Shown: one piece after another, positions 43,990 to 64,000 of the stretch
Layout: each line of letters begins with the position of its first letter
Position numbering within the stretch: position 1 is the stretch's first letter
NCBI GenBank assembly: GCA_029262675.1
Contig: JAJCYW010000010.1
Coordinates: 129,166 to 193,165, forward strand
Source of the DNA: Chloroflexota bacterium
Lineage (GTDB): Bacteria; Chloroflexota; Dehalococcoidia; DSTF01; RBG-16-68-14
Reading direction: 5' to 3'
Length of the DNA: 64,000 nt
The notes under the pieces: model-generated
Told to the model about the DNA's origin: nothing
The model's database searches: none
The model's input: the letters and a program-made list of their open reading frames with translations, nothing else
Program-made: the position numbers and the translations under genes

Positions 43990-44688
43990 CTACGGCGCGG
44001 CGTGGGCGCCGACGTTGCCGTCCGCGTCGTCGTACAGGCGCTCCGCCCGGACGACGACCCGATCGTCGTACTGGCCGACGCTGGGGTCAAACGACCCGCC
44101 GCAGGTGATTAGCGTGATGATCTCGTTTGGTGTTCTGCCGACGATCTCCTGGATCGGCGCGTCGCTCGCCTTGTACTGGTCTCTGCGGAAAACGCCGTAC
44201 TCGTACACCGTTCCGTCCTGTAGCCGGACCTCTATGACGTCTCCCGGCTCCAGGTCCTTCAGGTTCCAGAATACGGCCGCGCCGTAGTTGTAGTAGTCCA
44301 CGTGGCCTGAAAACACGGCGTTGCTGCCGAACCCGGGCCGGGAGCTGAAGTCGTACCAGGCGACGTTGAGCGGGCCATCCGGCGTCTCCATGACGCCGTT
44401 GTCATCGACGCTCAGCACGACGATCGGCGCGTCGACGCCGAAGCGCGGAATCGCCAGTCCGGCTATCTGCGCCTCGCTCGGCGGCGGGGCCTCCGCCGTC
44501 GGAGTCGGCTGCGGCGTCAGTATGCGGTCAAGGCTCGTGTCAAAAGTGGTTGCCGTTTCCGGGCCAGCGTAGCCTTCATCTCCGGTCAGTTGGAAGACGA
44601 AGAGAACGGCCGCCGCTATCAACGACAGCACGCCCGCACCCATGACGATCAGGGAGAGCCGGTTCCAGTTTGCGCTATCTATCTTCAT
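43990..44688 (-). CDS. Sortase-family transpeptidase (class undetermined)
   Basis: N-terminal TM anchor; catalytic His (FSGHVDYY), TLITCGG Cys motif, downstream conserved Arg (VVVRAERL). Confidence 0.75.
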   Translation of the reverse strand: MKIDSANWNRLSLIVMGAGVLSLIAAAVLFVFQLTGDEGYAGPETATTFDTSLDRILTPQPTPTAEAPPPSEAQIAGLAIPRFGVDAPIVVLSVDDNGVMETPDGPLNVAWYDFSSRPGFGSNAVFSGHVDYYNYGAAVFWNLKDLEPGDVIEVRLQDGTVYEYGVFRRDQYKASDAPIQEIVGRTPNEIITLITCGGSFDPSVGQYDDRVVVRAERLYDDADGNVGAHAAP

Positions 44689-44861
44689 ATTGATCTACTA
44701 TTCTCCTACGTCCAGTATGTACTATATCGGCCATGAACGCACCGTACTCTAGATCACGCAATATTCGCTACGCTGTTCGGTGCTGCCACGCCATTCCACT
44801 TCGAATGTGCATATGCGTCTATACTGAGTTATCTTAGCAGCGGCCAAATGGGCGAGCAAGA

Positions 44862-45989
44862 GTGAAAACTATGCCACGTAACCGTCCCCAATCTGTCTGG
44901 CTGCCCCGGTTGATGGCCGCTGGTGCGCTGTTGGCGACTCTCAGCCTAGTCGCCGCCGTCGCCTGTGGCGATAGCGGTAATGGCGACGACGATAGCTTTA
45001 CTGCGATTCGCGAGCAGGCGCCGCCGGATTCGATCGCGTTCGGCGCGCAGGAGGGCGAGGGCGTCCCGCCGAACGGCGGGACGTACGGCCTCTACCTCGT
45101 GCGGCCGGACGGCACGTTCTTGCGTTCGATCCAGATCGAGACCGCGCCAGTCTCGTCGCCCGTCTGGGCACCCACCGGCGACCGCATCGCCTACAACTTC
45201 GGCGCGGACGCGGCGCGGCTCACCGCCACGCTTCGTATCTACGACTTCGCTTCGCAGGCCGCGACGACGGTCAGCGACAGCGCCCTCACCAGCGACGTCG
45301 GCCCGGCGATGAGCTGGTCCGCGGACGGCGGCCGCCTCGCGTTCGCCGAGGAAGGCGGCCGGATCCGCATCTACGATGCCGACCGCGCAGTGCTGGAAGA
45401 CGCCGGCGGCGCCACCGGTCTGACCCCCGCCTGGCGGCCCGGCGCAGACGAACTGGCGATCGCGCGCGTCAGCGGCAATGACTCCGGCAGCAGCCTGAGC
45501 GTCCTGGCCGCCGATGGCGACGACGAGCGAGAACTGTTGGAGCGCGAGGCCGCCGACGCCGCGCCCGTCTGGTCACCGGACGGCGAGTCGCTAGCGTTCC
45601 AGACGCTTCGTCCGGACGTGCCCGGTAGGTTTGTGCTCTCCGTGCTCCAGATCGATAACGGCTCGCTTACGGAGGTCGGCCCGGGGTCGGGCGCGGCGTG
45701 GTCACCGGACGGTGCATTCCTCACTTACTACACGCTCGTGTCGGACGCCTCACCGGACATCGATATCTTCGTCGCCCCCGCCGGCGGCGGCCCGCCGCGA
45801 GCGTTTGCCGGCCCCGCCACGCTGGACGTCGCGCCGAGCTGGTCGCCGGACGGCGGGCGTATCGTCTACCTGGCGCGGGCCGACCGCACGACGGCCTTCA
45901 TCTGCTTGGTGGCGCTCGAGGGCGAGGACCGCGATTGCTTGGACCTGCCCGGCCTGCTGCCGTCTCAGCCTGCCTGGTCGCCGCACTAG
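44862..45989 (+). CDS. TolB-like beta-propeller lipoprotein (PD40/WD40-like repeats)
   Basis: Lipobox LVAAVACGDSG; repeated (W/Y)SPDG motifs (WAPTGDRIAY, WSADGGRLAF, WSPDGESLAF, WSPDGAFLTY, WSPDGGRIVY). Confidence 0.7.
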   Translation: MKTMPRNRPQSVWLPRLMAAGALLATLSLVAAVACGDSGNGDDDSFTAIREQAPPDSIAFGAQEGEGVPPNGGTYGLYLVRPDGTFLRSIQIETAPVSSPVWAPTGDRIAYNFGADAARLTATLRIYDFASQAATTVSDSALTSDVGPAMSWSADGGRLAFAEEGGRIRIYDADRAVLEDAGGATGLTPAWRPGADELAIARVSGNDSGSSLSVLAADGDDERELLEREAADAAPVWSPDGESLAFQTLRPDVPGRFVLSVLQIDNGSLTEVGPGSGAAWSPDGAFLTYYTLVSDASPDIDIFVAPAGGGPPRAFAGPATLDVAPSWSPDGGRIVYLARADRTTAFICLVALEGEDRDCLDLPGLLPSQPAWSPH

Positions 45990-46023
45990 GGGTTGTTTCT
46001 AGCTGGTCGCCGCGCACGAGAGA

Positions 46024-46050
46024 AGAGGCGCCGGGTTTTCCGGCGCCTCT
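46024..46050. terminator. Hairpin AGAGGCGCCGG-gtttt-CCGGCGCCTCT between convergent genes
   Basis: 11-bp GC-rich stem read directly, between the TolB-like stop (45989) and gene A stop (46080). Confidence 0.5.
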
Positions 46051-46079: not shown

Positions 46080-48941
46080 CTAGTTCAGCCCCAGCCAGCT
46101 CCAGAACACGCCTCCACTGGAGGCGCCTCCTCCGGAGCTCGATCCGGCCGGGAAGCCAGAGATCAGCCCGGAAGCCTTCTGCAGAATCAACAGCGAGTCG
46201 AACGGGTCGATATTGCCGTCGTCGTTGACGTCAGCCGCGGCCGGGAACGGCACGGTTGACAGGCCGATCACCTCGAACAGGACCCAGAGCGAGTCGATCG
46301 GGTTGATGACGCCGTCGCCGTTCACGTCGCCCAGCTCGGGCGTCCCGGGCAGCGGGCTTGTCGAGACGCCGAAGTTCCACGAGCTGGCCGTCGAGGTCAG
46401 CACCGTGATCTGGATGTCGCCCGCGGCGGGGCCGATCAGCAGGTTCCGCTTGGAGATGCAGGGGTCAGGCTGGGCCTTGGTCGCCGGGCCGTTGCAGTTC
46501 GGCACCAGCACGCCGCCCTTGAACACCGGCAGCGTCTGCGCCGTCGTTCCCTGCGGGATGATGGACGAATCGAGCGTGAAGACGATGATGAGCGGCAGTT
46601 GCGACGTGCCGGACGGCGCGCTGATGTTCACCTGCTGTCCGAACAGCGTGAAGCCGCTGGGGGCGGGCTGGATGATGACCTTCTCAAGGATAGTCACCAC
46701 ACCGCCGACGGGCAGCGTAACGCTCGTTTCGAGCGGGTCTTCGGGGATCGCGCCGTCGCCCTCCTTGTCGGTCGTCACCAGGCCGCCGGGCGGCACTTCC
46801 TCCGACTGCGAATCCGGCAGCGCCGGCGTGTTGGTCGGCGTCGACGTTGGCGTTTCGGTCGGCGTTGGCGTGTCCGTCGGCACGGGCGTGTTCGTGGCCG
46901 TCGGCGTGAAGGTGTTGGTCACCGTCGGGCAGACATCGGGGCAGGGCGTGTGCGTCGGCGTCGGCGACTCCAGCGGCGTGGCCGTCGGCGTCGGCGTCAC
47001 CGTCGGCGCCGGCGCGTCGATGCAGTTGATGCGCAGCAAGTCCACGTACGGGAGTGTCGCGGTGTTATCGCCGAGGATGCCGTCACCGTCGCCGTCATAG
47101 ACGTGTTCGCCCAGCGGGTCCATGACAATCAACTCGATTTCGGGCAGGACGTCCCCAGCGTTGACCGTGTCGTAGAACGCGGAACCCGTGAGCCGCTGGG
47201 TGAAGATTGGGGTGCCATCGATGGGGTTCTTCGCGTACCCCGTCAGGAGCACGGGGACTTGCTGCACGGCCGTGCAGTGGACCTGCATCCGGACGAGCGT
47301 GCCGACCCGGTTCGACGCCGGGAACGGCGGTTCGTCGTCGGTCTTGGCCACGTGCCGCCGTTCCAACGGCTGGGCGGGGGATACGGTTGTCATGTTTGTA
47401 AACGCCTCGCAGACGAAGCCCGCCACGGCATCTGGCCGCCAGACGATCTCGTCAAAGCAGGAGCGCTCCTGGTGCTTGAGTCCGTTGAAGAAGACCTCGG
47501 TTTGGAACCCGCCGTAGCCGTCCGGGATCGAGTTCGCCTCGATCAGGATCTCGAACTTGCCGGACTCCGGGTCCTCCTCGGTGAACGGCGCCGTACACTT
47601 CTGAGGCTTTTCCGCCGTATCGCACGTGATGATGCCCGGGCCGTATGCGGTGAGCGAAAGCTCCGGCGGCGGCACCTCGCAGTTGATCGTGAGCACGTCG
47701 GCGTGCGGGCTGTTGACGGCGGCCACCTCGATCGTGCCGTCGTCCTCGTCGAAGAAGGCCGCGCCGTGCAGGTTCGCGATCGATAGCCTCTTCAGCGTTA
47801 CGGTCTGCGCGCCCGCCTGCGTGCAGTGCAGGTCGAGCTCGACGATGGTGCCCCTGTGCGTGCTGTTGGGGAACGTCGGCGCGGCGGCGCTGCGCGCCGT
47901 GTGGCGGATGAACTGGCCGAAGTTTTGGCCTGTGCACTCGTCGACGCTGGAGAGTTGCGGCCAGACGACCTCATCGTCGCAGTCCGGGCGCTGATTCCAG
48001 GCCAGGCCGCTGCTGAGCTGGACCTCTGTCTGGAAGCCGCCGTAGCCGTCCGGCGTCGGGATCGTGTTGACGTTGACCGCGACCGTGAACTCCCCCTGCT
48101 TGGTCTGGCCGGGGTAGTAGTCCGCTGTGCACGTCGCCGGCTTGGGCAGCGGCGTCGGCGTTGGCGTGCCGGCGCCGGTGTCTTCGACGCAGTCGAGTTC
48201 CGGCGCGTCCAGCGACATGATCGGGTTGGGCTGCGGCGTCGGCGTCGGCGTGTCGGTTGGCGTGTTCGTCGCCGTTGCCGTATTGGTAACTGTGGGCGTG
48301 TTCGAGGCCGTTGGCGTGGCGGTGGGGGTGTTGGTCGGTTCTGGCATCGGTGTGTGGGTGGGCAAGGTTCCGCCCGCCCCGCAGTTGACGATTATAAAAC
48401 TGCCAGGAACGGCGATATTGCCCAGGGCTGCGTCCGCGTATGCGGCGCCGCTGGTACCGGCGGGCGGGTCATTGAACGACACCAAAGTGATCTTATGTGA
48501 GCTGTCGCCCGACGTGCAGTTGAATTCGAAGGTGAACAGGTCGCCCTTGTAGAAGCTCGGGGGCGGGCTGATAAGTCCGGATAGGCAGCCACGGCCAGTG
48601 GTCGTGGCCGTGGACTGAGAAACGTCTGCGGCGTTGCATTCAGGCCACACAGTGGTGGACTGCTTGAACGTCAGGCCGGTAGCGCCGAAATCCAGGAACG
48701 CTTGCGTGCCGACGTAACCGTTCGTTGTCGGAACGGCGTCGCCGGTCACGGTGACCGTGAAGGCGCCGTTGAGGGCGACATTGTTAGAGGCGACGCTCAT
48801 GCTCATCGCCGCGCCGTCCACGGTGGACTGCGCAGTGTTGACCTGCTGGGCTACGATGAGAAGGACCGCCGCGACGGCTGCCATCAAGAGGAGTCCCGCA
48901 ACCGCCATCCGTCCGGATTCCTGCTGCATTTGAGTTAGCAT
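46080..48941 (-). CDS. Secreted modular protein A: signal/TM + 3 copies of the recurring N-domain family + PT-rich linkers + C-terminal dockerin
   Basis: ATG 48941 with GAGAAGGAAGG RBS. Copy 1 (GAAMSMSV...GYVGTQAFLDFG...VWPEC...GCLSGLISPP...AGTSGAAYAD) is nearly identical to the N-domain of the gene G protein; two diverged copies (DGYGGFQTEV...VVWPQL / ...VWRPD). Linkers PTNTPTATPTASNTPT, TPTPTATPLESPTPTHTP. Dockerin GDVNGDGVINPIDSLWVLFEV...DVNDDGNIDPFDSLLILQ. Confidence 0.7.
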   Translation of the reverse strand: MLTQMQQESGRMAVAGLLLMAAVAAVLLIVAQQVNTAQSTVDGAAMSMSVASNNVALNGAFTVTVTGDAVPTTNGYVGTQAFLDFGATGLTFKQSTTVWPECNAADVSQSTATTTGRGCLSGLISPPPSFYKGDLFTFEFNCTSGDSSHKITLVSFNDPPAGTSGAAYADAALGNIAVPGSFIIVNCGAGGTLPTHTPMPEPTNTPTATPTASNTPTVTNTATATNTPTDTPTPTPQPNPIMSLDAPELDCVEDTGAGTPTPTPLPKPATCTADYYPGQTKQGEFTVAVNVNTIPTPDGYGGFQTEVQLSSGLAWNQRPDCDDEVVWPQLSSVDECTGQNFGQFIRHTARSAAAPTFPNSTHRGTIVELDLHCTQAGAQTVTLKRLSIANLHGAAFFDEDDGTIEVAAVNSPHADVLTINCEVPPPELSLTAYGPGIITCDTAEKPQKCTAPFTEEDPESGKFEILIEANSIPDGYGGFQTEVFFNGLKHQERSCFDEIVWRPDAVAGFVCEAFTNMTTVSPAQPLERRHVAKTDDEPPFPASNRVGTLVRMQVHCTAVQQVPVLLTGYAKNPIDGTPIFTQRLTGSAFYDTVNAGDVLPEIELIVMDPLGEHVYDGDGDGILGDNTATLPYVDLLRINCIDAPAPTVTPTPTATPLESPTPTHTPCPDVCPTVTNTFTPTATNTPVPTDTPTPTETPTSTPTNTPALPDSQSEEVPPGGLVTTDKEGDGAIPEDPLETSVTLPVGGVVTILEKVIIQPAPSGFTLFGQQVNISAPSGTSQLPLIIVFTLDSSIIPQGTTAQTLPVFKGGVLVPNCNGPATKAQPDPCISKRNLLIGPAAGDIQITVLTSTASSWNFGVSTSPLPGTPELGDVNGDGVINPIDSLWVLFEVIGLSTVPFPAAADVNDDGNIDPFDSLLILQKASGLISGFPAGSSSGGGASSGGVFWSWLGLN

Positions 48942-49361: not shown

Positions 49362-50366
49362 TCAGCGGCAGATGAAGAGGTTCGCCTCTATTTGAAGGAT
49401 CAGCAGCGCGTCGATCGGCCCGGTGCGGCCATCGCCGTTCAGGTCGTCGCTGAACGGAACGAAGTCGATGACGCCCGTCGTCAGCCAGAGCACCCAGAGG
49501 GCGTCCTGGCTGTTGACCAGGCCGTTGCCGTCGATATCGCCGCAGGGCCGCGGCCGAGGCGTAGCGGTTGCGGGATCGAGCGTCGGCGTCGCGGTCACGG
49601 CCGGCGTCGGCGTTGGCGTCGTAGTCGGGGTCGGCGTTGCCGTGGGCGTAGGGGTGGGCGTCAGCGTGGGGCCGCCGGGCGTAATCGTCGGCAGCGGGGT
49701 GGGCGTCGGCGGCTCGCCGCAGATGATCGTGATGTTCGTCAGCTTGGGGATAGTGTCAACTTGAGAGTCGTTGACAAAGATCGTAATCTGTGATCCGCTG
49801 GTTCCCTGAGACGTGTTCGGAGGAATGACGCCATCATACGGCAACTGCACGACATCGCTGATGGTGTCCGTGCTGGAGCAGGTCATGCTGATGTGCACGA
49901 AGTCCCCGGCGAATGTGCTGATCGGCTGCGGCGGAAGTAATCCTGAGAGGCAGCCGTGGCCCACGTTGTAGATTGGCTGACCTGGCCCCGCCAGGTTGTC
50001 GAACTCCGGCCGCTGGGCGGTTTGCCCTACACAGTCCGGCCACACGATCTCATCGGCAGCTAGGCCGGTTCTGTTGTACGTCAGGTGTTCGCCGTAGCGG
50101 ACGAACGACTGCACGGCTACATACCCGCTGCTCGGGGCAGTGACGATCTTCACGGCCAGCGTGAACGTCTCGTCGAGCTCTAGCTGGCAGGTGCCCTCGC
50201 AGTCGCCGTCGGCCGCGATCACCGTGAGCGCCATCTCCGGGCCGCCGGACGTGGCGGACGTGGACGGCAGTTGGCCGCTGAGGAAGAGCGCGGCGGCGGC
50301 CAGCGCCACCACGGCAACGCCCGCGGCGGCGATGCGTCCGGCCCGTGGCCGCGATCGCGTGCTCAT
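49362..50366 (-). CDS. Secreted protein B: signal + N-domain + PT linker + dockerin
   Basis: SGGPEMALTV...GYVAVQSFVRYG...IVWPDC...HGCLSGLLPPQP...; TPTPTPTATPTPTTTPTPTP; dockerin CGDIDGNGLVNSQDALWVLW...DLNGDGRTGPIDALLILQ. Confidence 0.7.
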   Translation of the reverse strand: MSTRSRPRAGRIAAAGVAVVALAAAALFLSGQLPSTSATSGGPEMALTVIAADGDCEGTCQLELDETFTLAVKIVTAPSSGYVAVQSFVRYGEHLTYNRTGLAADEIVWPDCVGQTAQRPEFDNLAGPGQPIYNVGHGCLSGLLPPQPISTFAGDFVHISMTCSSTDTISDVVQLPYDGVIPPNTSQGTSGSQITIFVNDSQVDTIPKLTNITIICGEPPTPTPLPTITPGGPTLTPTPTPTATPTPTTTPTPTPAVTATPTLDPATATPRPRPCGDIDGNGLVNSQDALWVLWLTTGVIDFVPFSDDLNGDGRTGPIDALLILQIEANLFICR

Positions 50367-50565: not shown

Positions 50566-51534
50566 TTACGCGGGTGGCACGCAGAAATCGCTGCCGTTGC
50601 CGGCCACGATCTGGAGGATCAACGCGGCGTCGATCGAGTTGACGACTCGGTCGCCGTCGATATCTCCGATCAGATCGAGAAGGCTGTCCTGGTTGTTGTC
50701 CTTGAGCGGTAGCAACGCCTCGACGAGCCCGGCGTCGAACCACAGCACCCAGAGCGCGTCCAGCGTGCTGATTTCACCATCGCGGTTGACGTCGCCGCAG
50801 ACAAAGTCCGGAACCGGCGTCGCTGTCGGCGGTACCGGCGTGTCCGTCGCCGGAGCCGGCGTGTCTGTCGGGCCAGGCGTGGCTGTCGGGCCGGATGTCG
50901 TCGGCGTGGCCTCGACAGGCGCCGTCGTTGGCGTTTCTGGCGGCGCGCCCGCACCGCAGGTGATGGAGAGGGTGCTCACCTTGGCGGGTATGACTTCGGC
51001 TCCGGCGGAGAAACCGGTGCCGCTGGTACCGGCGACAGGGTCGCCTGCCGGCAGCAGCGCTACGTCCGTCGTACTGGGGCCCGCGGAGCACGTGATTGAT
51101 ACCTCTGCGAAGCTGCCGGTGGCGGTGCTGAGCGGCAGCGGCGGAATCAGGCCAGTGAGGCAGCCGTGGTTGACGGTGGTCGGCCCGCCCGGCTGGTCGT
51201 GCAAGGCCACCGCGTCGGTGCAGTCCGGCCAGAGGATTTCGTCAGCAGCGGCCACCGCTGCGAGGTCGTAGGACAGGTCGCTGCCGAAGTCGATGAACGA
51301 CTGGGCGCCGACGTAGCCGCCTGCCAGCCCCTCGATGATCTCGACCGTGAGCGTAAACTTCGCGCTGTTATCGAACGTGCAGTCTGCGGCGCAGCCTTCG
51401 GCCGTCAGCCGCATCTCCGGGCCGCTACTGGCGGCCGAGGTGGTCTGAATCTGGTCGGCGAGGAAGAATGCCGTCGCCACGAGGGCGAGCACAGCCGCCA
51501 GCCCGAAGCCCAGATATGTTCTCTTTAGTTGCAT
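50566..51534 (-). CDS. Secreted protein C: signal + N-domain + PT linker + dockerin
   Basis: ATG 51534 (MQLKRTYLGF...) with AAGGAGG 7 nt upstream. SSGPEMRLTA...GYVGAQSFIDFG...ILWPDC...HGCLTGLIPPLP; dockerin CGDVNRDGEISTLDALWVLW...DIDGDRVVNSIDAALILQ. Confidence 0.7.
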   Translation of the reverse strand: MQLKRTYLGFGLAAVLALVATAFFLADQIQTTSAASSGPEMRLTAEGCAADCTFDNSAKFTLTVEIIEGLAGGYVGAQSFIDFGSDLSYDLAAVAAADEILWPDCTDAVALHDQPGGPTTVNHGCLTGLIPPLPLSTATGSFAEVSITCSAGPSTTDVALLPAGDPVAGTSGTGFSAGAEVIPAKVSTLSITCGAGAPPETPTTAPVEATPTTSGPTATPGPTDTPAPATDTPVPPTATPVPDFVCGDVNRDGEISTLDALWVLWFDAGLVEALLPLKDNNQDSLLDLIGDIDGDRVVNSIDAALILQIVAGNGSDFCVPPA

Positions 51535-51570
51535 CGTGTAACCTCCTTGCATATCTCGCTTCGAGACGCG

Positions 51571-52362
51571 CTACTGTACGCGGCGGCCTGCGATTACGCG
51601 CAGGCCGAACGTGGAGAGCCCCGTCGCGCTGATCGCCAGCAGAGCTGCGATTACTGCCCACATGCCTGTTCCGAACCCGCTGTCGCCGGTGGCGCTGAAT
51701 GTACCCGTGTCCGGCAGACCAGTCGGACCAGTCGGCCCGGGCGGTGGCGCCTCGCCACAGTTGACGATTACGGAGTCCGTCTTGGTCGGCACGTCTACTT
51801 GTGTATCGCCCTCATAGAAGGCGAACGCGGCGCCGCTGGTCCGGCCGGCGGATAGCGGCATCAGGCGCACGGCCGTGTGCGAGTAGGTGTCTGAGCACTC
51901 CAGGTCGATTTCAAGCAGCGTGCCCGTGTAGCTGCTCTCAGGGAGCGGCGGGAGCAGGCCCGTGAGGCCGCCATGGGTGATCTCGCCTGCCCCTACATCG
52001 CCTCTGATGATTACATCTTCGGATACTGCGTCGGGCCACAGGAACTCATCCGCCGGTTCCGGCCGCGCGACGTAAGTCAGGTCCAGGCCGTAGTCGATGA
52101 ACGTTTGTACCAGAACGTAGCCCTCGATCGGCGCCGTGACGACGTCGACCGTGACCGTTATCTCGCCGCCCAGATCCACGTCACACTCGCCGCCGCTGCA
52201 ATCGACGCCGGGGCCGGATACGCTGATGGCCATCTCCGGACCGATGCCGGCAGCGCTCGCGGTGGGTGCGGCGGTCTGGCCCCATGCCAGCACCAGCATC
52301 GCCATGAGCGGGATACCCAACAGCGCGGTGCTGCGTAGCCCTAATCGTTTCCGCACTTCCAT
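51571..52362 (-). CDS. Surface protein D: signal + N-domain + C-terminal LPDTG sortase sorting signal, no dockerin
   Basis: ATG 52362 (MEVRKRLGL...) with GGAAGGGAG RBS. GIGPEMAISV...GYVLVQTFIDYG...FLWPDA...HGGLTGLLPPLP. C-terminus GLPDTGTFSATGDSGFGTGMWAVIAALLAISATGLSTFGLRVIAGRRVQ. Confidence 0.7.
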   Translation of the reverse strand: MEVRKRLGLRSTALLGIPLMAMLVLAWGQTAAPTASAAGIGPEMAISVSGPGVDCSGGECDVDLGGEITVTVDVVTAPIEGYVLVQTFIDYGLDLTYVARPEPADEFLWPDAVSEDVIIRGDVGAGEITHGGLTGLLPPLPESSYTGTLLEIDLECSDTYSHTAVRLMPLSAGRTSGAAFAFYEGDTQVDVPTKTDSVIVNCGEAPPPGPTGPTGLPDTGTFSATGDSGFGTGMWAVIAALLAISATGLSTFGLRVIAGRRVQ

Positions 52363-52763: not shown

Positions 52764-53549
52764 TTAATTCACGCACGGCACCTGATACTGCGTGATGGCG
52801 CCCAGGATGTCAAGGAGAAGGTCGATTGCGCCGTCGTCGTTGATGTCGAAGGCCGGATCGTACGGCGGGGCTCCACTAGGAGCGTAGTGCTGAATGATGC
52901 CCAGGATGTCGTTCAGCAGGTCGACGATGCCGTCTCCGTTTGTATCGGCGCAGCCCATGAACAGGAGGGTTGATGACAGGACGCTTACTCCAGGGATCTG
53001 CCCGATGTCATCGGGGTCCGCCGGCGTGTTGATCAGGTACGAACCAGTCAGGTCCAGCGCGGTTCCCGGACCCATGATCGAGCCCGGATCGAGCGTCAGC
53101 TTCGCCAGGAGGCCGGTGCCTTGCACGCCGAAGGGAGGCACGTGGTCGATGGTAACGCAGTCCACGAAGACGTGGTTGGCCTCTATCGTCGGTGAAGGAC
53201 AGGATGGGCTTCGGCCGGATCCGGCAAGCCACGTGGTGTACGGCACCCAGGTTACGGCCGTCGCCAGCGAATCGTCGAATGCGATGTCGACGCGGAAGCC
53301 GGAGGCGCCTCCGGGCTCCTTCACGCTGACGGCCCAGACATAGATGTCTCGGTCAATGCCATCCGGGGAGACGACGATAGAGGACGCGCGGACGGGACTT
53401 ACGTCGGAGTAGCTCAACAAGATCTGCGTGGTCCCCGCACTTTCCGCGGGGTTGCTATCTTGAGCGATCCCCACTGTGGCGAAGACGAGCGCTCCAACCA
53501 GCAATCCGATCTTCGCGAATCCTCGCAATGGCTTTGTCAGTCGGTTCAC
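52764..53549 (-). CDS. Secreted adaptor-like protein E: signal + cohesin-like module + dockerin
   Basis: GTG 53549 (VNRLTKPLRGFAKIGLLVGALVFATV...) with AGGAGG 7 nt upstream. Cohesin-like hallmarks GASGFRVDIAFDDSLATAVTW and GTGLLAKLTLDPG. Dockerin CADTNGDGIVDLLNDILGII...DINDDGAIDLLLDILGAI. Confidence 0.6.
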   Translation of the reverse strand: MNRLTKPLRGFAKIGLLVGALVFATVGIAQDSNPAESAGTTQILLSYSDVSPVRASSIVVSPDGIDRDIYVWAVSVKEPGGASGFRVDIAFDDSLATAVTWVPYTTWLAGSGRSPSCPSPTIEANHVFVDCVTIDHVPPFGVQGTGLLAKLTLDPGSIMGPGTALDLTGSYLINTPADPDDIGQIPGVSVLSSTLLFMGCADTNGDGIVDLLNDILGIIQHYAPSGAPPYDPAFDINDDGAIDLLLDILGAITQYQVPCVN

Positions 53550-53607
53550 GGCTTGTACCTCCTGCTTCCGAATGCGTTGCATACGGGAACTGGCTCCCCC
53601 CGAAGCT

Positions 53608-56701: not shown

Positions 56702-58900
56702 TCATAACAACAGCGAGCAGTCCTGCCCGTGGTGCTGAATGACCGGCAGGACGTCGAAGAGCAGGCTGACCGTGCCGTCACCGTCGATATCGTAGAGCAC
56801 GTCGAATCCGGGATCTCCCGTTACCTCGCCGTGGTGTTGCACGACCGTCAGGATGTCGAAGAGCAGGTCGACCACGAGGTCGCCGGTAACGTCGAAGCAG
56901 GCCTTCAGGTCTGTTGTTTCGGAGGCGTCGTTGCCTACTGGGTTCTCATCCGGGTCCGAGGCAGACGCCGTGACGTTGTTCGTAATCGTTTGGTCCACCA
57001 TCAGTGTTGGCGCGCGCACATCCAGCGTGATGATCACCTGGCTGCTTACGAGGACCTCGTCGATGGTGCACTCGACCGTATCGACCGGTACCGCGACGCA
57101 AACGGCTCCCGTCGCGCCGACAAAGGTGGCCGGACGGTTGAACTTGGCGAAGTTGAAGACGGTAGCCGTCGGCAACGTGTCCGTCACGACCACGTCCAGC
57201 GCGTCGCCGAGCCCGATGTTGTCGACCGTGATCGTGTAGCTGTAGTAGCCGAGTCGCAGCACCGGATCGGCCAAATCCACCTTGGTTACGACGAGGTCCG
57301 GCGGCGGCGCCACAACCGGCGTGTACGCGATAGCCGAGTTGTTGCCGGAGTGGACAAAGAGCTCGTTGTCGGCCGAAACGACCGCAGTGTTCTTCATCAT
57401 CAGGCTCTGCGTCACCACCGGAGAGAGCATCACGATCTCGACGAATGCATCGCTGCCCGCCGGAATGTTCCCCAGGCTGCAGGTGACGACCCCGGCGACT
57501 GGCGCGCCGCAGCCGGGGCTTGCCGACACGAAGGCACCGTCCAACGGAAGCGTGTCCACAATGACGACGTTTTCTGCCTCTTGCGGACCGCTGTTTGCGG
57601 CCGTCAGCGTGTACGTGACGTTCTCGTTGCCGTTCACGAATGACGGATCGCCCACTTTGGTCAGATCCACGTCTGACCGTGGTGCGAGGACTACCGTCTC
57701 TTCGATATCCGTATTATTACCGGTGTTCGCAAAAGGCTCGTTGCTCGCGCTTACAGTGACCGTGTTCGAGACCAGCGTGTCCAATATGGGCGATGGCGCC
57801 GTCACGGTGATATCGATGACTACCTGGTCGGACGGGTTCATCGGGTTGGTGACCGTGCAGATCACGACGCCTAGATTCTCGCCGCAGTTGGCGCCCGCGG
57901 AGACCGCGGACACAAACGACGAACCGGGCGGTAACGCGTCGGACATCGTAACGTCCTCGGCCGTTTGCAGGCCCACGCTATCGATGGTGACGCGGTACGT
58001 GAAAGTGGCCGTCGCGTCGACGGGGTCCGTCAGGTCGACCTTCGTCACCTTGACGTCAGGCCGCTCGCTCGGCGGCGGCAGCGGCGTCGGGGTGTCGGTC
58101 GGCGTCGGCGAGACCGTCGGCGTGTGTGTAGCCGGAATCGGCGTCACCGTCGGTGTCGGCGTCGGGCCCAGGCAGTGGACGACGAGATCTGAAAGCTTCG
58201 GAATGACTGTTGTTGTCCCATCCTGGAACGCGGTGCCGCTGGTGCCCGCCAACGGGTCGTTTTCCGGCAGGAGCTGGACATTGGTGGTGGAAGAAGACGA
58301 GGAGCACGTGAATGATAGCTCCAAGATGGTGCCGATGAAGAAGCTCACCGGCTGCGGGGGGATTAGGCCCGTGAGTCCGCCGTGGGATACGACGTGCGGC
58401 GCGACTTGGGCCTTGAATACCACCGAAGGGTCTAGGTCTGGCCAGACCATCTCGTCGGCCGCGGCCTGGGAGTTGTAGGTGAGGTTGGTCGTGACGCAAT
58501 CGGTGTCGAAGCGGTCGGCGCCATCGCCGCCGCCGTTGTCGATTGTGTCACTGCAGGTATTGAGACCGGCGCCGTCTTCGCTCGCGGCGGGATCGTAGAT
58601 GCCGTAATCGATGAACGTCTGCACCGCAATGTACCCCGGCACTGGCGTATCGATGACATTAGCCGTCAGCGTGAAGGTGTCGCCTGCCGTGACGCAGTCG
58701 TCGTTCGGGTCATAGCCGCCCGGGCATGCTGTGCCGCCCGTAGTAACCGCCATAGAGATCTCCGGTCCGGTGCTGGCGGCCTCTGCGCGCTGCTCGCCGC
58801 CGCTATCCCAGACCAGGAAGACCGCGACGGCGATGAGCGCGATGATTGGCAGCACCAAGAGCCGTGTTGCCATCCTTGGACTAATGTTGCCGATCTTCAT
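56702..58900 (-). CDS. Secreted protein H: signal + N-domain + 3 DUF11-like conserved repeat domains + dockerin
   Basis: ATG 58900 with GGAGGAGG RBS. N-domain STGPEISMAV...GYIAVQTFIDYG...MVWPDL...HGGLTGLIPPQP. Three ~120-aa repeats (DVKVTKVDLTDPVDATATFTYRVTI.., DVDLTKVGDPSF..VTYTLTAANSGPQEAENVVIVDTLP.., DLVVTKVDLADPV..YSYTITVDNIGLGDALDVVVTDTLP). Dockerin CFDVTGDLVVDLLFDILTVV...DIDGDGTVSLLFDVLPVI. Confidence 0.7.
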   Translation of the reverse strand: MKIGNISPRMATRLLVLPIIALIAVAVFLVWDSGGEQRAEAASTGPEISMAVTTGGTACPGGYDPNDDCVTAGDTFTLTANVIDTPVPGYIAVQTFIDYGIYDPAASEDGAGLNTCSDTIDNGGGDGADRFDTDCVTTNLTYNSQAAADEMVWPDLDPSVVFKAQVAPHVVSHGGLTGLIPPQPVSFFIGTILELSFTCSSSSSTTNVQLLPENDPLAGTSGTAFQDGTTTVIPKLSDLVVHCLGPTPTPTVTPIPATHTPTVSPTPTDTPTPLPPPSERPDVKVTKVDLTDPVDATATFTYRVTIDSVGLQTAEDVTMSDALPPGSSFVSAVSAGANCGENLGVVICTVTNPMNPSDQVVIDITVTAPSPILDTLVSNTVTVSASNEPFANTGNNTDIEETVVLAPRSDVDLTKVGDPSFVNGNENVTYTLTAANSGPQEAENVVIVDTLPLDGAFVSASPGCGAPVAGVVTCSLGNIPAGSDAFVEIVMLSPVVTQSLMMKNTAVVSADNELFVHSGNNSAIAYTPVVAPPPDLVVTKVDLADPVLRLGYYSYTITVDNIGLGDALDVVVTDTLPTATVFNFAKFNRPATFVGATGAVCVAVPVDTVECTIDEVLVSSQVIITLDVRAPTLMVDQTITNNVTASASDPDENPVGNDASETTDLKACFDVTGDLVVDLLFDILTVVQHHGEVTGDPGFDVLYDIDGDGTVSLLFDVLPVIQHHGQDCSLLL

Positions 58901-58956: not shown

Positions 58957-60720
58957 TCATACCGGTGGCTGATCGAGTACTCCTGCTTCCAACTGCAAGA
59001 TGACGGTCGCGTCGATGCTGTTGACTGTTCCGTTCTCATCCACGTCGGCGTTCTCCGCGCAGGCCACGTTGGCCAGCAGTCCGGCGTGATACTGCAACAC
59101 CAATGTAGCATCGATGCTGTTCGTTTGGCCGTCGCAGTTCACGTCACCGCTAGCCGGACGGCTGGTGAGCGCGTCCGAACATGAGGCGGCCACGACGTCG
59201 TCGCCGGTCATCAACCCGAGTGACGACGCGGCCAGGGCAACGGTCGGGGGCGTACGCGCGACGCCGGCGGGCGTCGCGGGCCACAGCAAGTCGCCGGGGC
59301 CGGCGCCGATCGCAGCCAGCGTCGGCGATCCGGCCGTCAGTGAAAAGACAACGTGGTCTTCTGTGGCGCGATACGTTCCGTCGCCGCTCTCATGCAGGCA
59401 GAGGGCGTCAATGTCGTCTCCGGGCAGTAGGCCCAGCGCTCCGGCCGTAGCGTACGCCGCGGGTGGCGCGCCCGCCGACGTGACCAGCACATCTGCTGCC
59501 AAGACGCCGTACGCCGGGAGCGACGGGGACGCGCCGTCGAGCGAAAAGTACACGCTCCGCTCCGGGACGCCGTCGTGGTTGGCATCGACAACGTCCGCGT
59601 GCGGCTGCGTTAGCGCGTTGAGGTTGGGGCGAGCGCTGATCGACTCGACAAGGCCGAGCGGGAACGCGGCTGCGCAGGCGCCGATCGGTCCGTTGCCGTC
59701 CAGCGTGAGCTGGTTCGTTCCGTCGCCGGTGGACGAGAACACGTCCGATTCGGCCTCGGGCGAGAGCCCCGGCTCGGCCGGGGGGCAGGCGCGCTGCTCG
59801 GCGACCGCCGTGCCCGGCATTCCGTCTGCCGTGGGGCCGACCGAGAAGTAGCTGACGTTGGCGGCCAGGTCGTTACCGAACGACAGGGCGTCGATGTCGT
59901 CCCGCGGGGCGCCTTCTGCTCCGCAGCCGGTGAGCCCCAGGCCGGGGCAGGCGATGCGAACAAACGGGGCTTGGCCTGCGCCCGTCGTGGCTGCGAGCGG
60001 CGTCAGCGCTAGCACACTCGCGGGGGGTAGGCCGTCCGCGTTGCCGCGCTCGACGGAGTACGCGGGTAACAGCGGAGCGACTGCGATAGTGAGGCTATTG
60101 ATGCACAGTTCGAGGTCGGTATGCGTGTTCGCCTCGTTTACCAGCGCGATGCAGTGTTCTGGCGTGCCTGCTGCTGGCGCTGGCCACTGGTACGTGAGAC
60201 CGAGCGGCGGCCACGCCGCAAGGAAGGCCTGTTGGCCGGACGCTGCGGGCGTCAGGTGGATGGGCGTCTCGTTGTGGATCTGAAGCGGGCCGATTACGGT
60301 GCTCGGCAGTTCAAGATCGAGAGATAGCTCGAAGAAGCTGGACGCCGGAAACGGGATGCCGGGCTGCGTGCTGCGGATCTCGCCCGTCGAGTGGTAGGAC
60401 GCGCCCTGGTCGGGCCGCTCCGTGACATCCACCAGACCGAGACGGCTTGCTCCTCGTAGCTCTAGGTTGACGATCGCTAGCTCCTGAACCAGGGTTCCGC
60501 CGTCGTCGCGCGGATCCGACCGCTCTACCTCAATCCATCCAGGGAGGATCGCCGTGTCGCCGCCCAGAAGGCTCGTCACTTCCGCGATCGCGACTACCGG
60601 TAGCGTGTCCGTTCCAGGTGGGTACGTAGGCATCCCGGCCCTCGTTAACTGCGTCGCATTCATCATCACCAAGCCGAAGAAGAGTAACGCGCCTGTCAGC
60701 CCTAATCCGACGAAACGCAT
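58957..60720 (-). CDS. Secreted protein I: signal + unrecognised ~480-aa N-terminal region with internal repeats + canonical dockerin
   Basis: ATG 60720 with GAGGAG RBS. Internal repeats (GAPRDDIDALSFG / LPGDDIDALCLHESGDG / MTGDDVVAASCSD). Dockerin SGDVNCDGQTNSIDATLVLQYHAGLL...DVDENGTVNSIDATVILQ. Confidence 0.65.
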   Translation of the reverse strand: MRFVGLGLTGALLFFGLVMMNATQLTRAGMPTYPPGTDTLPVVAIAEVTSLLGGDTAILPGWIEVERSDPRDDGGTLVQELAIVNLELRGASRLGLVDVTERPDQGASYHSTGEIRSTQPGIPFPASSFFELSLDLELPSTVIGPLQIHNETPIHLTPAASGQQAFLAAWPPLGLTYQWPAPAAGTPEHCIALVNEANTHTDLELCINSLTIAVAPLLPAYSVERGNADGLPPASVLALTPLAATTGAGQAPFVRIACPGLGLTGCGAEGAPRDDIDALSFGNDLAANVSYFSVGPTADGMPGTAVAEQRACPPAEPGLSPEAESDVFSSTGDGTNQLTLDGNGPIGACAAAFPLGLVESISARPNLNALTQPHADVVDANHDGVPERSVYFSLDGASPSLPAYGVLAADVLVTSAGAPPAAYATAGALGLLPGDDIDALCLHESGDGTYRATEDHVVFSLTAGSPTLAAIGAGPGDLLWPATPAGVARTPPTVALAASSLGLMTGDDVVAASCSDALTSRPASGDVNCDGQTNSIDATLVLQYHAGLLANVACAENADVDENGTVNSIDATVILQLEAGVLDQPPV

Positions 60721-60860: not shown

Positions 60861-63800
60861 CTATCGCGGGCCATCTGTGTCCTCTTGACGACGCGACGGC
60901 GCAGGCCTGAAGCGCGGCTGGAACGGTGCCGGCGTCACGCCCTGCCGTCTGCGCCACCACAGCAGTTGCGACCAGGCGAGCAGCACCGCGCCGCCCGCTA
61001 ATCCAGCGATCGCGAGCGTGGTTGGCAGTACGTCGCCCGATGACCCGTCAGCCCCTCCCGTATCGGGGAGACCTGCGACCGGAGTCTTTAGGATAGGCCC
61101 ACTGTCGCGGACCAGTGTTGGTGTTGAGGTTGGCACAGGCGCCTGGATGGGCGTGGCCGATCCCGTGGGTGATGCGGGCGTTGCGGTGCTGGGCGGCGCC
61201 CCGGGGGCCGGCGTGTCCGTCGGCGGGATGAATGCGGGCGTTGCGGTGCTGGGCGGCGCACCGGGGGCCGGCGTGTCCGTCGGCGGGATGGCGGGAACTG
61301 GTGTGGCGGTGTTTGCGGGTGCCGGCGTCGATGTGGGCGGCACAGCGGGCGTCCCGAATGTCGGTAGCGGGATCACCGTCGCCGTTGGTGGTGGCGGAGT
61401 CGTCGGTGTGGGCGTTGGAATCGCCGCTATCGCCGGTGTCCACGTCGGCTCGGCGGTCCACGTCGGTACTGGTGTCCAAGTCGGCTCCTGCGTCCACGTT
61501 GGCTGGGGCGTCCAGGTGTGCGTCGCTGTCGGCGAGGCGTCAGACGTTGGCACAGGCGTACCAGAGCCGTCAGGCGTCGCGGAGGGTTCTGGAGTCGTAC
61601 TCGGTGCCGGCGTGTCTGTAGCTGTAAGAGCCGGCGTGGCTGTCGCCGTCGATGTTACCGTTGGGTCCGGCGTCGGCGAGCCGGCCCCGGCGCCTCCCGG
61701 CGTGGCAGTTGCCGTCGCTGTCGCTGCGGCCGTCGCTGTCGCTGGCGCAGTCGTTACCGTCGCGGTTGGTTGCGGCGAAGGTGATGCGGTCGGAGTGCTT
61801 GACGGCGTTTCGCCGGTCGGCCCAGGGGTCGCGGTAGCCTCGGGCGTGACGCTCGGCGTTGGGGTTTCCGTTGACTTGGATGGCGGATCCTGTATGCCCC
61901 ACGGTTGCGCACAGGTGCTGCCCGTGCGGCCGTAGACTGTCTGCAGGTCGCTGATGTCGATGTCGCCGTCCGGCCGGATGGCTGGCTCGAGATCGTACCT
62001 CTCCTGATATAGGGTAGAGCCTTCGGAAACGCCGAAGCGTCCGGCTACCATTTGGTGATCGATGACGTTGACGGCGCAGTCGACGTTGATGTCGGACTCC
62101 AGCGCGCGAACGATGACCTTGGCGTCGCCGACGAACGAAACCGGAATGCCGTCCTCCAGCGCGCCGACGAGTCTGGTGTTCGCCGTGACGTCATCCAGAA
62201 TCACTTCTATCCCGTTATTTGGCGCCGGCCGAATCGGAATCCTCGCCAGCGGTGTTACCGTGATCCTGGCGAAAGCGAACGTGCCGCTCGGGCCGGGGTC
62301 GACGCCGGTCGTCACGCAGCCGAAGCGCACCGCTCCCTCCGTCCTGTTCTCCAGACATGTCGCCGTTCGGTCTGTGCCTTCCAACTCCTGGAGGAACGGC
62401 GAGGCGTCGATATCGAGCGATACGGTGTTGTTGTCGTAGGCCACGTGCAGCTCAAAACCACCGAGGCCGGATCCCTCCGGAACGTTCTGCGCCCGTTCGT
62501 ACAGCACAAGCGAGCCATTGCCCAAGAATAGGTTGGATTCCGCCGGCTCCTTGATCACACTGACGATATCCTGTTCCGATTGAACGCCCGCCGGCCCCGT
62601 GACGCCTGGATACGCGACTGACTTGTGGGCCGTAATCGCCACCGTCCGCAGCGTCGTGGTGAGCGAGCTGCTGTTGAGGCTCGGTATGCCTGGCGTTGCT
62701 GTTGGAGTCACCGTCGGTGTCGGGGTGGGCGTAGCGACAGGTGTCGGAGTCGCCGGCGGGATGACGATGACGACGCCGTCCTGCGTCACGATAGGTAGCT
62801 GGGCCGCGCCTGGGACGTCGACGATAATCGGGCCTGAGAGATGGAGCGGTGACAGTCCTTCGGCGAGGGCGAAGAATGTGGCCGTGGCGATCACGCCTGA
62901 ACCGTTGGCGCCAGGCGGCGTGGTGCCGATGGTGTTGCAGGAGAACTCGACGTCGCTAACGCCTACGATGGGCGGCAAGCAGACGACGTTGCGTCCCGTA
63001 CTGCCGAGAAAGGGGCCGACGACGAGCGACTGGGACAAGATCACAGACGGGCTGTAGCTGAGCATGAACTGGAACGCGCCGAGGTCGGCTACGTTATCGA
63101 CAACAATGTCCGCCGTGACGATGGTACCGACTGGCGCGTTCTGGCTGACCGGATCTATGCGTATGGTGACTGGCCCAGCGGGCGTCGTTGACGTTGGCGT
63201 AGGTGTGAACGTCGCTGTCGGCGGCGGGATCGGCGTGTCGGTGGGGGTTGGGGTGATCGTCGGCGTTGGTGTCACCGTCGGCGTCGGGCAGATGCCGCCC
63301 GGGCACGGGGTTGGTGTCACCGTCGGCGTCGGGCTGAGCGTGGCAGTTGGCGAGAGCGTCGGCGTCGGCGTCGCCCCCTCGACGACCGTGATCTCGCCGA
63401 CTCCGAGTGCCGCCGTCGGGTAGGCGAGTCCAGGGACGTCTGTGAAAATGACGTCCTCAAACGTCAGCAAGCTGATGCCGGCAGCCTCTCCCCGCAGCGT
63501 GATGAATGCTAACACGCCGGTGCCTGTTGGCCCCGCCGGTGTTGGTTCAATCGACACGCAGGTGTACTGGATGAAACCCGGCCCGGCGGTGGGCACTAGG
63601 CACGTGACGATGCGTGATGTGCTGGAGAGGAACGGCCCGGGTGATACGCTGGGCGCGGAAACGACGAGCGGATCATACCGAAGCGTGAACTGGAAGGCGC
63701 CCAGCTCCGGCGCGTTTGCCACAGCGACCTCAAGGATCGTTTCGCTGCTCAGATTCACAGTCTGGCTCTGCGGCTGCGGGCAGAGGATGAAGACGACCGC

Positions 63801-63995
63801 CGCGCCGCACGTGATCGGCGTTGGTGTAGCCGTGGGCGTTGACGTTGGCCCGCCAGGCGTCGGCGTTGAGGTCGGTGTCAATGTCGGGCATGTAGTCGTG
63901 CCCAAGACGGTCGCGGTGCCATTGTGCAGCGAGCGCGGGATCGGCGTGCCGAGCGTATCGGCGATGTCTGCGTTTGCCAGGATCAGCGTGCTCAC
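60861..63995 (-). CDS. Scaffoldin-like surface protein J (N-terminus beyond window end): >=3 cohesin-like modules + class-2 dockerin-like module + long PT-rich region + LPDTG sortase signal
   Basis: Three cohesin hallmarks (LGAFQFTLRYDPLVVSA..GVLAFITLRGEAAGISLLTF; LGAFQFMLSYSPSVILS..GVIATATFFALAEGLSPLHL; LGGFELHVAYDNNTVSL..GTFAFARITVTP) separated by PTPT linkers. DINVDCAVNVIDHQMVAGRFGV...DGDIDISDLQTVYGRTGSTC. C-terminus GLPDTGGADGSSGDVLPTTLAIAGLAGGAVLLAWSQLLWWRRRQG. ORF still open at 63995. Confidence 0.65.
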   Translation of the reverse strand: MSTLILANADIADTLGTPIPRSLHNGTATVLGTTTCPTLTPTSTPTPGGPTSTPTATPTPITCGAAVVFILCPQPQSQTVNLSSETILEVAVANAPELGAFQFTLRYDPLVVSAPSVSPGPFLSSTSRIVTCLVPTAGPGFIQYTCVSIEPTPAGPTGTGVLAFITLRGEAAGISLLTFEDVIFTDVPGLAYPTAALGVGEITVVEGATPTPTLSPTATLSPTPTVTPTPCPGGICPTPTVTPTPTITPTPTDTPIPPPTATFTPTPTSTTPAGPVTIRIDPVSQNAPVGTIVTADIVVDNVADLGAFQFMLSYSPSVILSQSLVVGPFLGSTGRNVVCLPPIVGVSDVEFSCNTIGTTPPGANGSGVIATATFFALAEGLSPLHLSGPIIVDVPGAAQLPIVTQDGVVIVIPPATPTPVATPTPTPTVTPTATPGIPSLNSSSLTTTLRTVAITAHKSVAYPGVTGPAGVQSEQDIVSVIKEPAESNLFLGNGSLVLYERAQNVPEGSGLGGFELHVAYDNNTVSLDIDASPFLQELEGTDRTATCLENRTEGAVRFGCVTTGVDPGPSGTFAFARITVTPLARIPIRPAPNNGIEVILDDVTANTRLVGALEDGIPVSFVGDAKVIVRALESDINVDCAVNVIDHQMVAGRFGVSEGSTLYQERYDLEPAIRPDGDIDISDLQTVYGRTGSTCAQPWGIQDPPSKSTETPTPSVTPEATATPGPTGETPSSTPTASPSPQPTATVTTAPATATAAATATATATPGGAGAGSPTPDPTVTSTATATPALTATDTPAPSTTPEPSATPDGSGTPVPTSDASPTATHTWTPQPTWTQEPTWTPVPTWTAEPTWTPAIAAIPTPTPTTPPPPTATVIPLPTFGTPAVPPTSTPAPANTATPVPAIPPTDTPAPGAPPSTATPAFIPPTDTPAPGAPPSTATPASPTGSATPIQAPVPTSTPTLVRDSGPILKTPVAGLPDTGGADGSSGDVLPTTLAIAGLAGGAVLLAWSQLLWWRRRQGVTPAPFQPRFRPAPSRRQEDTDGPR

Positions 63996-64000
63996 GCCGC

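Follow-up and report, generated by a model that had tools for sequence, protein, structure and literature searches.

A candidate non-cellulosomal cohesin-dockerin assembly system beside a sortase gene in a Chloroflexota genome

The 64,000-nucleotide stretch of Chloroflexota DNA considered here, called the window (contig JAJCYW010000010.1, positions 129,166 to 193,165), has a guanine-plus-cytosine content of about 66% and contains ten successive minus-strand open reading frames (ORFs), A to J, that run from 46080 to past 63998, with J continuing beyond the window end. The ten genes, found where they had been reported, code for modular proteins that carry candidate cohesins and dockerins and lie close to a sortase gene. 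The pairing of cohesins with dockerins is chiefly known as the glue of the cellulosome in a few Firmicutes, and modules of both kinds outside cellulosomes are an already known phenomenon. At the N-terminus of the cluster proteins a hydrophobic helix is preceded by a basic stretch and followed by a cleavage-type site rich in Ala (the N-terminus of J lies outside the window), and Pro/Thr-rich linkers are present in most of the ten. The starts of D and E were taken at internal Met codons (M38, at 52362, for D and M75, at 53582, for E) that precede typical signal peptides; the long N-terminal extensions of the two ORFs were rejected as probable artefacts of ORF calling, and the internal start of E is favoured because its overlap with F then disappears.

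The order J-I-H-G-E-D-C-B-A-PD40-sortase(s), in which PD40 stands for a beta-propeller gene next to A, recurs in the Chloroflexota metagenome-assembled genomes (MAGs) SZUA-185 (loci L001/L005) and B76T1B5 (locus L009), with about 45-60% identity between the syntenic proteins and with J cut off at the end of the L009 locus, and part of the order is found in B45T1L10 (L010). This conserved gene order argues for one functional system. Gene F is missing from L001 and L009 and is thus an accessory, lineage-specific addition. The related MAGs come from marine and hydrothermal sources.

Cohesins and dockerins of the cluster

Pfam Cohesin (PF00963; gathering cut-off 24.1 bits) scores above cut-off solely in J (60861..63998, minus strand; at least 1045 aa within the window), at 40.4 bits, in the modules J1 (63375-63806) and J2 (62757-63179). 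They are followed by a third, cohesin-like module, J3 (62097-62561), a dockerin-like segment (61899-62096), a Pro/Thr-rich stalk of about 275 aa (61074-61898), and an LPDTG motif with a hydrophobic helix and a basic tail (60951-61073). The stalk includes PTWT repeats (HTWTPQPTWTQEPTWTPVPTWTAEPTWTP) and, at 61172-61290, a stretch of 60 bp duplicated in tandem almost exactly (98% matches); the L001 orthologue of J measures 1831 aa. Gene F (53608..54549, minus strand; 313 aa) codes for a signal peptide, a cohesin (53947-54426), a Pro/Thr linker, and a C-terminal membrane helix followed by RRR (53641-53706). Its Pfam Cohesin score of 15.8 bits is under cut-off, and BLAST relates its cohesin to J1 (E = 3e-11) and J2 (E = 1e-9). 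Gene E (52764..53582, minus strand, within an ORF that reaches 53804 and would overlap F) codes for a signal peptide, a cohesin-like module (52956-53435), and a dockerin-type tail (52767-52958), while gene G (54869..56329, minus strand; 486 aa) codes for a signal peptide, an N-terminal domain described below as N-dom (55727-56209), a linker, and a module, named gct, composed of a cohesin-like beta-sandwich (55103-55651) and a dockerin-like tail (54872-55102) ending in PVNPKA.

The sandwiches of E and G, J3, and all the N-doms have no Pfam Cohesin match. Aligned by hhalign with a clean cohesin profile, made of J1, J2, F, and PF00963-positive homologues and leaving out the class under test, E reaches 97.7% (1.9e-12), G 96.4% (1.1e-9), and J3 98.0% (1.5e-13). 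Sequence comparison thereby supports E, G, J3, and F as cohesin homologues, and the cohesins that the original prediction had placed in E, F, G, and J all stand, by Pfam for J, by BLAST for F, and by hhalign for E, G, and J3. The same holds for the roles assigned to three of these proteins: J has at least three cohesins and an LPDTG anchor, F is a membrane-anchored single cohesin, and E joins a cohesin to a dockerin, albeit one of a separate class.

In E, G, and J3 the sandwich joins the dockerin-type segment directly, without a linker. The modules of G and J3 share 36% identity over 201 aa (BLAST, E = 3e-29) and belong to the gct type, which spans about 260 residues and is by far the best-conserved module of the cluster, with about 70% identity among more than 239 homologues and dozens of residues that do not vary, six Cys and the C-terminal PVNPKA among them. 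Such extreme conservation suggests that the partner of gct does not vary among species. In other Chloroflexota proteins, gct is preceded by Pfam cohesin or SpaA_2 domains in place of the N-dom. A Foldseek search with the two-domain model of G was dominated by multi-domain alignments to integrin legs, which are not assignable to one domain and were kept only as an architectural analogy.

Dockerins are tandem repeats of about 22 residues, in each of which a helix comes after an EF-hand-like Ca2+ loop (DxNxDGxxxxxD). Two canonical loops each can be read directly in A, C, I, and an unlinked protein encoded at 27183..28109 (minus strand; 308 aa), and these four score above the Pfam Dockerin_1 (PF00404) gathering cut-off of 22.9 bits (A 35.2, C 31.6, I 37.9, and the 27183 protein 26.5 bits). 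The dockerin of B scores 20.0 bits, under cut-off, has one canonical loop plus DLNGDGRTGPID, and is 45% identical to that of A (BLAST, E = 2e-9). The dockerin of I matches solved dockerins (E = 7e-6) and shares 46% identity with that of the 27183 protein (BLAST, E = 4e-14), which is of the same sub-type. On direct reading, the canonical dockerins form two sub-types, namely that of A (46149-46340), B (49365-49547), and C (50587-50805, where an insertion splits the two repeats), with an LWVL(F/W) first helix, and the symmetric one of I (58960-59157) and the 27183 protein, where the first loop and the linker contain a Cys each. The 27183 protein is secreted and bears its dockerin mid-chain (residues ~146-200), with a weak CarboxypepD_reg-like beta-sandwich after it.

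The tails of E and H (56705-56908), initially taken for canonical dockerins, instead form a separate class, flanked by Cys and with variant loops (D.(N/T)GD.(V/I)VDLxxDIL). The two tails are 41% identical (BLAST, E = 2.6e-11) and stay under the Dockerin_1 cut-off in the full-length proteins (E 18.4 and H 13.8 bits), while the isolated modules score 22.9 bits, a borderline value, and 18.8 bits, respectively. Together with those of their orthologues, these C-termini match the C-terminal 70 positions of NCBIfam NF041520, the flexitail putative surface protein, with scores that do not reach its cut-off of 40 bits (E 36.6, H 20.1, and the L001 orthologue of E 33.1). Since the profile of this flexitail class aligns with the local canonical dockerin profile at 91.7% (hhalign, E = 8e-7), the tails of E and H may be accepted as a divergent dockerin class; the connection between flexitails and dockerins was made in this analysis, and the literature search found no paper on the flexitail family.

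The only Pfam family to match the tails of G and J is Dockerin_1, with scores of 13.4 and 13.6 bits (E ~0.08-0.09) that lie under cut-off. Their class aligns with dockerins at 30% in hhalign, with both loops in register; each tail holds a single loop-like segment (DVEPDCSVDALD in G, DINVDCAVNVID in J) plus a shortened DxDIDIxDL, and in the AlphaFold2 (AF2) model of G the tail consists of two helices in a low-confidence region (predicted local distance difference test, pLDDT, 42-77). They had been described as divergent C-terminal dockerins; they count here as dockerin-like, and in J the segment is internal and not C-terminal. The dockerin-type modules of the cluster thus comprise at least three classes, canonical (with the A/B/C and I sub-types), flexitail (E and H), and the G/J tail, whereas D and F have no dockerin. 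Where nine dockerin proteins had been counted, Pfam upholds A, C, I, and the 27183 protein, the identity to A upholds B, and profile comparison upholds E and H as a divergent class, with G and J unproven; among the ten cluster genes the number is eight, G and J tails included, to which the 27183 protein adds one outside the cluster.

The dockerin-bearing proteins also carry other parts. Gene A (46080..48941, minus strand; 953 aa) codes for a signal peptide, three N-doms, a Pro/Thr linker, a module of about 160 aa of no assigned family (46344-46817), and the dockerin, past which a Gly/Ser stretch leads to a hydrophobic (V/I/A)FW(S/T)WL motif (46080-46148; FWSWL in A). The orthologues in L001 and L009 share this terminal motif, as does the protein P0041. 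Genes B (49362..50366; 334 aa) and C (50566..51552; 328 aa), both on the minus strand, code for a signal peptide, one N-dom, a Pro/Thr linker, and the dockerin. Gene H (56702..58900, minus strand; 732 aa) adds, between its linker-joined N-dom and its flexitail, three DUF11/CLIPPER stretches (56909-58063; Pfam DUF11, 128.5 bits). Gene I (58957..60720, minus strand; 587 aa) codes for a signal peptide, a domain of about 490 aa (59161-60636) whose distant homologues are annotated DUF6073, some ending in PEP-CTERM, and the dockerin. The absence of glycoside hydrolases and other catalytic domains from the proposed cargo proved correct for all ten proteins in the Pfam and NCBIfam scans; specifically, glycoside hydrolase, carbohydrate esterase, polysaccharide lyase, and other catalytic domains are lacking from A-J (Pfam and NCBIfam), the 27183 protein, and the syntenic L001 genes, and Pfam detects neither a carbohydrate-binding module (CBM) nor an S-layer homology (SLH) domain in any cluster protein.

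The N-terminal domain and its predicted fold

All-against-all BLAST reveals a domain of about 160 residues, the N-dom, that immediately follows the signal peptide in B, C, D, G, and H and occurs three times in A, for a total of eight copies in the cluster. Besides that of G, the copies lie at 48381-48818, 47673-48095, and 47019-47666 in A (E = 5e-39, 4e-41, and 1e-34), at 49716-50243 in B (E = 3e-53), at 50950-51423 in C (the copy that was modelled), at 51751-52242 in D (E = 5e-56), and at 58166-58768 in H (E = 3e-55). Gene D (51571..52362, minus strand, within an ORF extending to 52473) couples its signal peptide and single N-dom to an LPDTG motif, a membrane helix, and an RR tail (51574-51720). 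The N-dom of H contains, at residues 101-137 (~58490-58600), a 37-aa insertion rich in Asp, Gly, and Cys (IYDPAASEDGAGLNTCSDTIDNGGGDGADRFDTDCVTT), which the orthologue in L001 shares and which resembles an additional Ca2+-binding or disulfide-bonded loop.

The domain is marked by the motifs GPEM, GYVxxQxFxDYG, WPDC, HGCLTGLIPPxPxS, and AGTSG and by conserved Cys pairs. No Pfam or NCBIfam family matches it, a profile search gives no sequence match in the PDB, and its alignment with the local cohesin profile (hhalign, <2%) reveals no similarity, so that structure prediction was the only informative route. The AF2 model of the N-dom of C (36 sequences) reaches a pLDDT of 92.8 and a predicted template modelling score (pTM) of 0.88, and that of G, from an independent model built on another alignment (74 sequences), has a pLDDT mostly above 90. 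The top structural matches of the models are consistently cohesins, covering 128-145 residues of targets of about 140 residues, and the models display the nine-stranded flattened beta jelly-roll of cohesins. By its predicted fold, the N-dom is a cohesin. The cohesins listed in four proteins, correct as far as they went, had thus left eight further cohesin-fold modules overlooked.

An exhaustive profile search places 814 cluster representatives at 50% identity in the N-dom family (E up to 1e-3; 539 at 1e-10), and its genome matches are all in Chloroflexota, save one weak match in Armatimonadota. Pfam Cohesin is absent from all 75 N-dom family proteins scanned with it. Among the 176 family proteins whose architectures were counted, 42 combine at least one N-dom with a canonical dockerin and 22 with a flexitail, 24 have a sortase-type signal, 15 a lipobox, and seven join one or more N-doms to gct; one to three N-doms are present per protein, nearly always together with an attachment device of one of these five kinds. 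Longer members carry added RCC1, FG-GAP, DUF11, or PD40 domains and, rarely, Peptidase_S8, the fusions of PD40 to N-doms being found in other genomes. Around the locus L003, which has canonical dockerins only, and the loci L004, L008, and L011, which have flexitails only, N-doms are present and no other cohesin type lies within reach, leaving the N-dom as the sole local candidate for a receptor. The sub-type of the N-dom was also compared with the attachment device: the nearest neighbour is of the same class for 141 of 177 modules, against about 46 expected, and this covariation was set aside as evidence of co-evolving partners because whole-protein orthology explains it.

Anchoring, assembly, and alternative explanations

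Surface anchoring, which may rely on SLH domains or sortase signals, is provided for by the LPDTG motifs of D and J, both followed by a hydrophobic helix and a basic tail as read directly, and by the adjoining sortase gene. The anchor reported for J is therefore accompanied by a second one in D, which had not been listed; this single-copy N-dom protein with a sortase signal is a part to which no role had been given. The orthologues of D end in LPPSG, LPPTG, LPSSG, or FPSSG plus a helix, and F has no LPXTG; its C-terminus shows a very weak NCBIfam match to the 'GVDTG' sorting domain (E = 0.04). The sortase gene (43990..44688, minus strand) is confirmed by Pfam Sortase (83.8 bits) and codes for a protein of 232 aa with an N-terminal membrane helix, nearest to NCBIfam class F (114.8 bits, not reaching the cut-off of 166) and scoring 26 bits with class C. 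A sortase adjoins the cluster also in L001 and L009, but as two paralogous copies (17569-18300 and 19163-19891 in L001, with a DUF3105 gene between them, and 15016-16546 in L009), compared with the one within reach in the window.

The sortase gene and two tRNA-Ser genes had been placed upstream of the cluster and are all present, on its downstream side; the tRNA genes (43550-43637 and 43816-43903), however, are located beyond the sortase, and what separates the sortase from A is the PD40 gene (44862..45989, plus strand), oriented opposite to the cluster. Its product is a PD40/TolB-like beta-propeller with a lipobox (AAVAC), which scores 54 bits with Pfam PD40 and 88 bits, under cut-off, with the NCBIfam TolB-type propeller. 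The L001 orthologue occupies the same position, on the opposite strand, and the PD40 protein may be part of the system. The cluster is flanked by housekeeping genes (gyrA, mnmA, a tsaB-like gene, and others), which indicates a chromosomal location. Elsewhere in the window, a gene at 28975-30360 (plus strand), with no relation to the cluster, codes for an alpha/beta-hydrolase domain fused to an adenylate/guanylate cyclase catalytic domain.

The balance of evidence leans, if not heavily, towards a non-cellulosomal cohesin-dockerin assembly on the Chloroflexota cell surface, in which the N-dom would serve as a dockerin socket. The original prediction of a cohesin-dockerin cluster with a scaffold, a membrane-bound cohesin, and a cohesin-plus-dockerin protein next to a sortase gene is supported in this respect. 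The base of the assembly in the envelope would be formed by J, with its cohesins on the long Pro/Thr stalk, D, with its one N-dom, and F, with its cohesin held by the membrane helix, J and D presumably being linked to the envelope by the neighbouring sortase. The seven remaining secreted proteins would plug, via their dockerin-type modules and with Ca2+, into matching cohesins, and the N-doms of A (three), B, C, G, and H, together with the cohesin-like modules of E and G, would offer new sockets on the proteins thus bound. Since most of the plug-bearing proteins also bear sockets, there is room in the complex for several tiers and for branches; it could grow outwards in tiers, branch at A, and end at plug-only proteins, I being one and further dockerin proteins, for instance the 27183 protein, being possible others. 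Hence A, B, C, and H, each of which starts with one to three cohesin-fold N-doms, are potential adaptors or extenders and not the simple cargo that had been supposed; the description as cargo without cohesins still fits only I and the central portions of A and H. The payload, consisting of the DUF11/CLIPPER stretches of H, the DUF6073-like domain of I, and the ~160-aa module of A, would be structural or adhesive, and the likely role is that of a surface coat, fibres, or adhesion.

A bolder version of the same idea, which is quite doubtful, is that the N-dom represents a new cohesin lineage and binds the dockerin of a sister protein, so that B, C, A, and H would form Ca2+-dependent, non-covalent, head-to-tail chains. 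Sortase-anchored D would serve as the root of such chains, A, with its three sockets, as the branching point, and I, which has no socket, as the cap.

Several observations weigh against the N-dom as socket and the assembly built on it. Classical scaffoldins avoid a dockerin that fits their own cohesins, and N-doms are found together with each of the three dockerin classes; whichever way they pair, the proteins would have to self-associate or be specific at the level of sub-types. Only two of the five AF2 models of the C copy of the N-dom are confident (pLDDT 92.8 and 81.1), the others being at about 50. The tails of G and J are dockerin-like and unproven as dockerins. Lastly, Peptidase_S8 is present in two of 75 N-dom family proteins elsewhere, and the display of enzymes is therefore conceivable on a genome-wide scale.

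The alternative that fares best, though it is on the unlikely side, is close to the model first put forward, that is, the display of cargo on a scaffold. Accordingly, only J1, J2, and F, and perhaps E, G, and J3, would bind dockerins, and the N-dom would be a cohesin-shaped passenger or spacer, for instance an adhesin, a lattice module, or a wall-proximal stalk, displayed either directly (in D and in the lipoprotein forms elsewhere) or via dockerins (in A, B, C, and H). This would escape the difficulty of a cohesin and its own dockerin on the same chain and would agree with the lack of sequence homology between N-dom and cohesins, as well as with the spacer-like position that the domain takes elsewhere, between cargo (RCC1, FG-GAP, PD40, or subtilase) and a C-terminal attachment module. 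It fits less well with the consistency of the cohesin matches at nearly full length, with the lone N-doms that bear a sortase or lipid anchor (D; P0001, P0004, P0010, P0013, and others) and resemble the receptors ScaE and OlpA/OlpC, and with the several loci where dockerin proteins are accompanied by N-doms and by no other cohesin.

It is improbable that the cluster is the scaffolding of an enzyme-organising complex, either cellulosome- or amylosome-like or proteolytic, whose enzymes, equipped with dockerins, have their genes at other places in the genome. The multi-cohesin scaffoldin J, the dockerin protein encoded outside the cluster at 27183-28109, the Peptidase_S8 members of the N-dom family, and one weak oligogalacturonate-lyase match in the same family are in line with such a complex. 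Conversely, no glycoside hydrolase, CBM, or enzyme is present in the ten proteins or in the scanned part of the window (beyond position 24000), the syntenic clusters hold no enzymes either, the MAG sources are not plant-biomass habitats, and seven cluster proteins already compete for the sockets. Membership of a cellulosome in the proper sense was rejected: despite the several cohesins of J, no dockerin-borne carbohydrate-active enzyme occurs among A-J, the 27183 protein, and syntenic L001, and there is no CBM. A covalent pilus polymerised by the sortase from N-dom subunits, to which the sortase beside the cluster and the tandem sortases of L001 and L009 could point, is rejected as highly implausible, given that LPXTG is confined to D and J while A, B, C, G, and H have dockerin-type ends, that the near-invariant N-dom residues include conserved Cys pairs but lack a conserved Lys or Asn that could form a pilin motif or isopeptide bond, and that the sortase is nearest to class F and not to the pilus-specific class C.

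Relation to known systems and significance

In its organisation, the proposed assembly is closest to the cellulosome of Ruminococcus flavefaciens, with its sortase-anchored ScaE and the scaffoldins and adaptors ScaA, ScaB, and ScaC. Common to both are tiers of proteins that bear cohesin plus dockerin and the several specificity groups of cohesins and dockerins. Unlike in R. flavefaciens, there are here no dockerin-borne glycoside hydrolases or CBMs, the payload being of DUF11/CLIPPER and DUF6073-like type, most of the sockets belong to a family unrecognisable as cohesins by sequence, and the host is a high-GC Chloroflexota of marine or hydrothermal metagenomes. A further likeness is with the X-DocII dyad of Clostridium thermocellum CipA (3kcp, 4fl4), in that E, G, and J3 each show a beta-sandwich passing directly, with no linker, into a dockerin-type segment. 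The model of G aligns in Foldseek over about 430 columns with CohI9-X-DocII, an architectural analogy only, and, as in X-DocII, the dyad of G and J3 is the best-conserved and presumably the anchoring end. In contrast to X-DocII, the beta-sandwich is here a homologue of cohesins and not an X module, the tail is unproven as a dockerin, and J, which has an anchor of its own, holds the dyad inside the chain.

In their context, the closest relatives are non-cellulosomal modules, such as the Archaeoglobus fulgidus cohesin 2xdh, the cohesins of the Clostridium perfringens toxin complex (2vo8, 2w1n), and the scaffoldin-like proteins of anaerobic methanotrophic archaea (ANME), which share with the cluster the use of cohesins and dockerins outside plant cell-wall degradation. 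ANME genomes encode proteins with one dockerin and up to five cohesins, for which a role in cell-cell contact is suspected (PMC9012536). By the account of that paper, which cites the survey of Peer et al. 2009, earlier surveys yielded mostly isolated modules and, for archaea, not a single multi-cohesin scaffoldin. Unlike the non-cellulosomal modules surveyed, the present ones form a full syntenic set of anchor, adaptor, and terminal proteins in one cluster with a sortase, and N-dom and gct lie outside the Pfam and NCBIfam models on which such surveys were based. In human gut ruminococci, sequence-divergent cohesins have been recovered solely via structure prediction with AlphaFold models (PMC13463774). 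The N-dom likewise has a predicted cohesin fold that is invisible to sequence profiles; the gut proteins belong to true Firmicutes cellulosomes, whereas the N-dom comes from Chloroflexota and stands alongside non-enzymatic proteins. Automated annotation names some of the homologues 'cohesin domain-containing' or 'dockerin type I repeat-containing', and the literature search found no description of the conserved cluster, the hidden cohesin-fold family, the gct module, or the flexitail-dockerin link.

The size of the two module families, with 814 representatives and no Pfam or NCBIfam model for the N-dom and more than 239 homologues for gct, implies that surveys based on profiles under-count cohesins outside Firmicutes. 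About six cohesin and four dockerin sub-types come from this one organism; they may be mutually orthogonal and thus of use for designer protein scaffolds, and the module boundaries given here open the matrix of pairings to direct testing. If the head-to-tail chains, doubtful as they are, did exist, a self-assembling cohesin-dockerin fibre or lattice would constitute an appendage or coat undescribed in bacteria and widespread in uncultured Chloroflexota, a large and mostly uncultured phylum whose envelope is poorly understood. If the broader assembly proves true, its enzyme-free set of anchor, adaptor, and terminal proteins would make the cohesin-dockerin glue a general construction kit for the cell surface.

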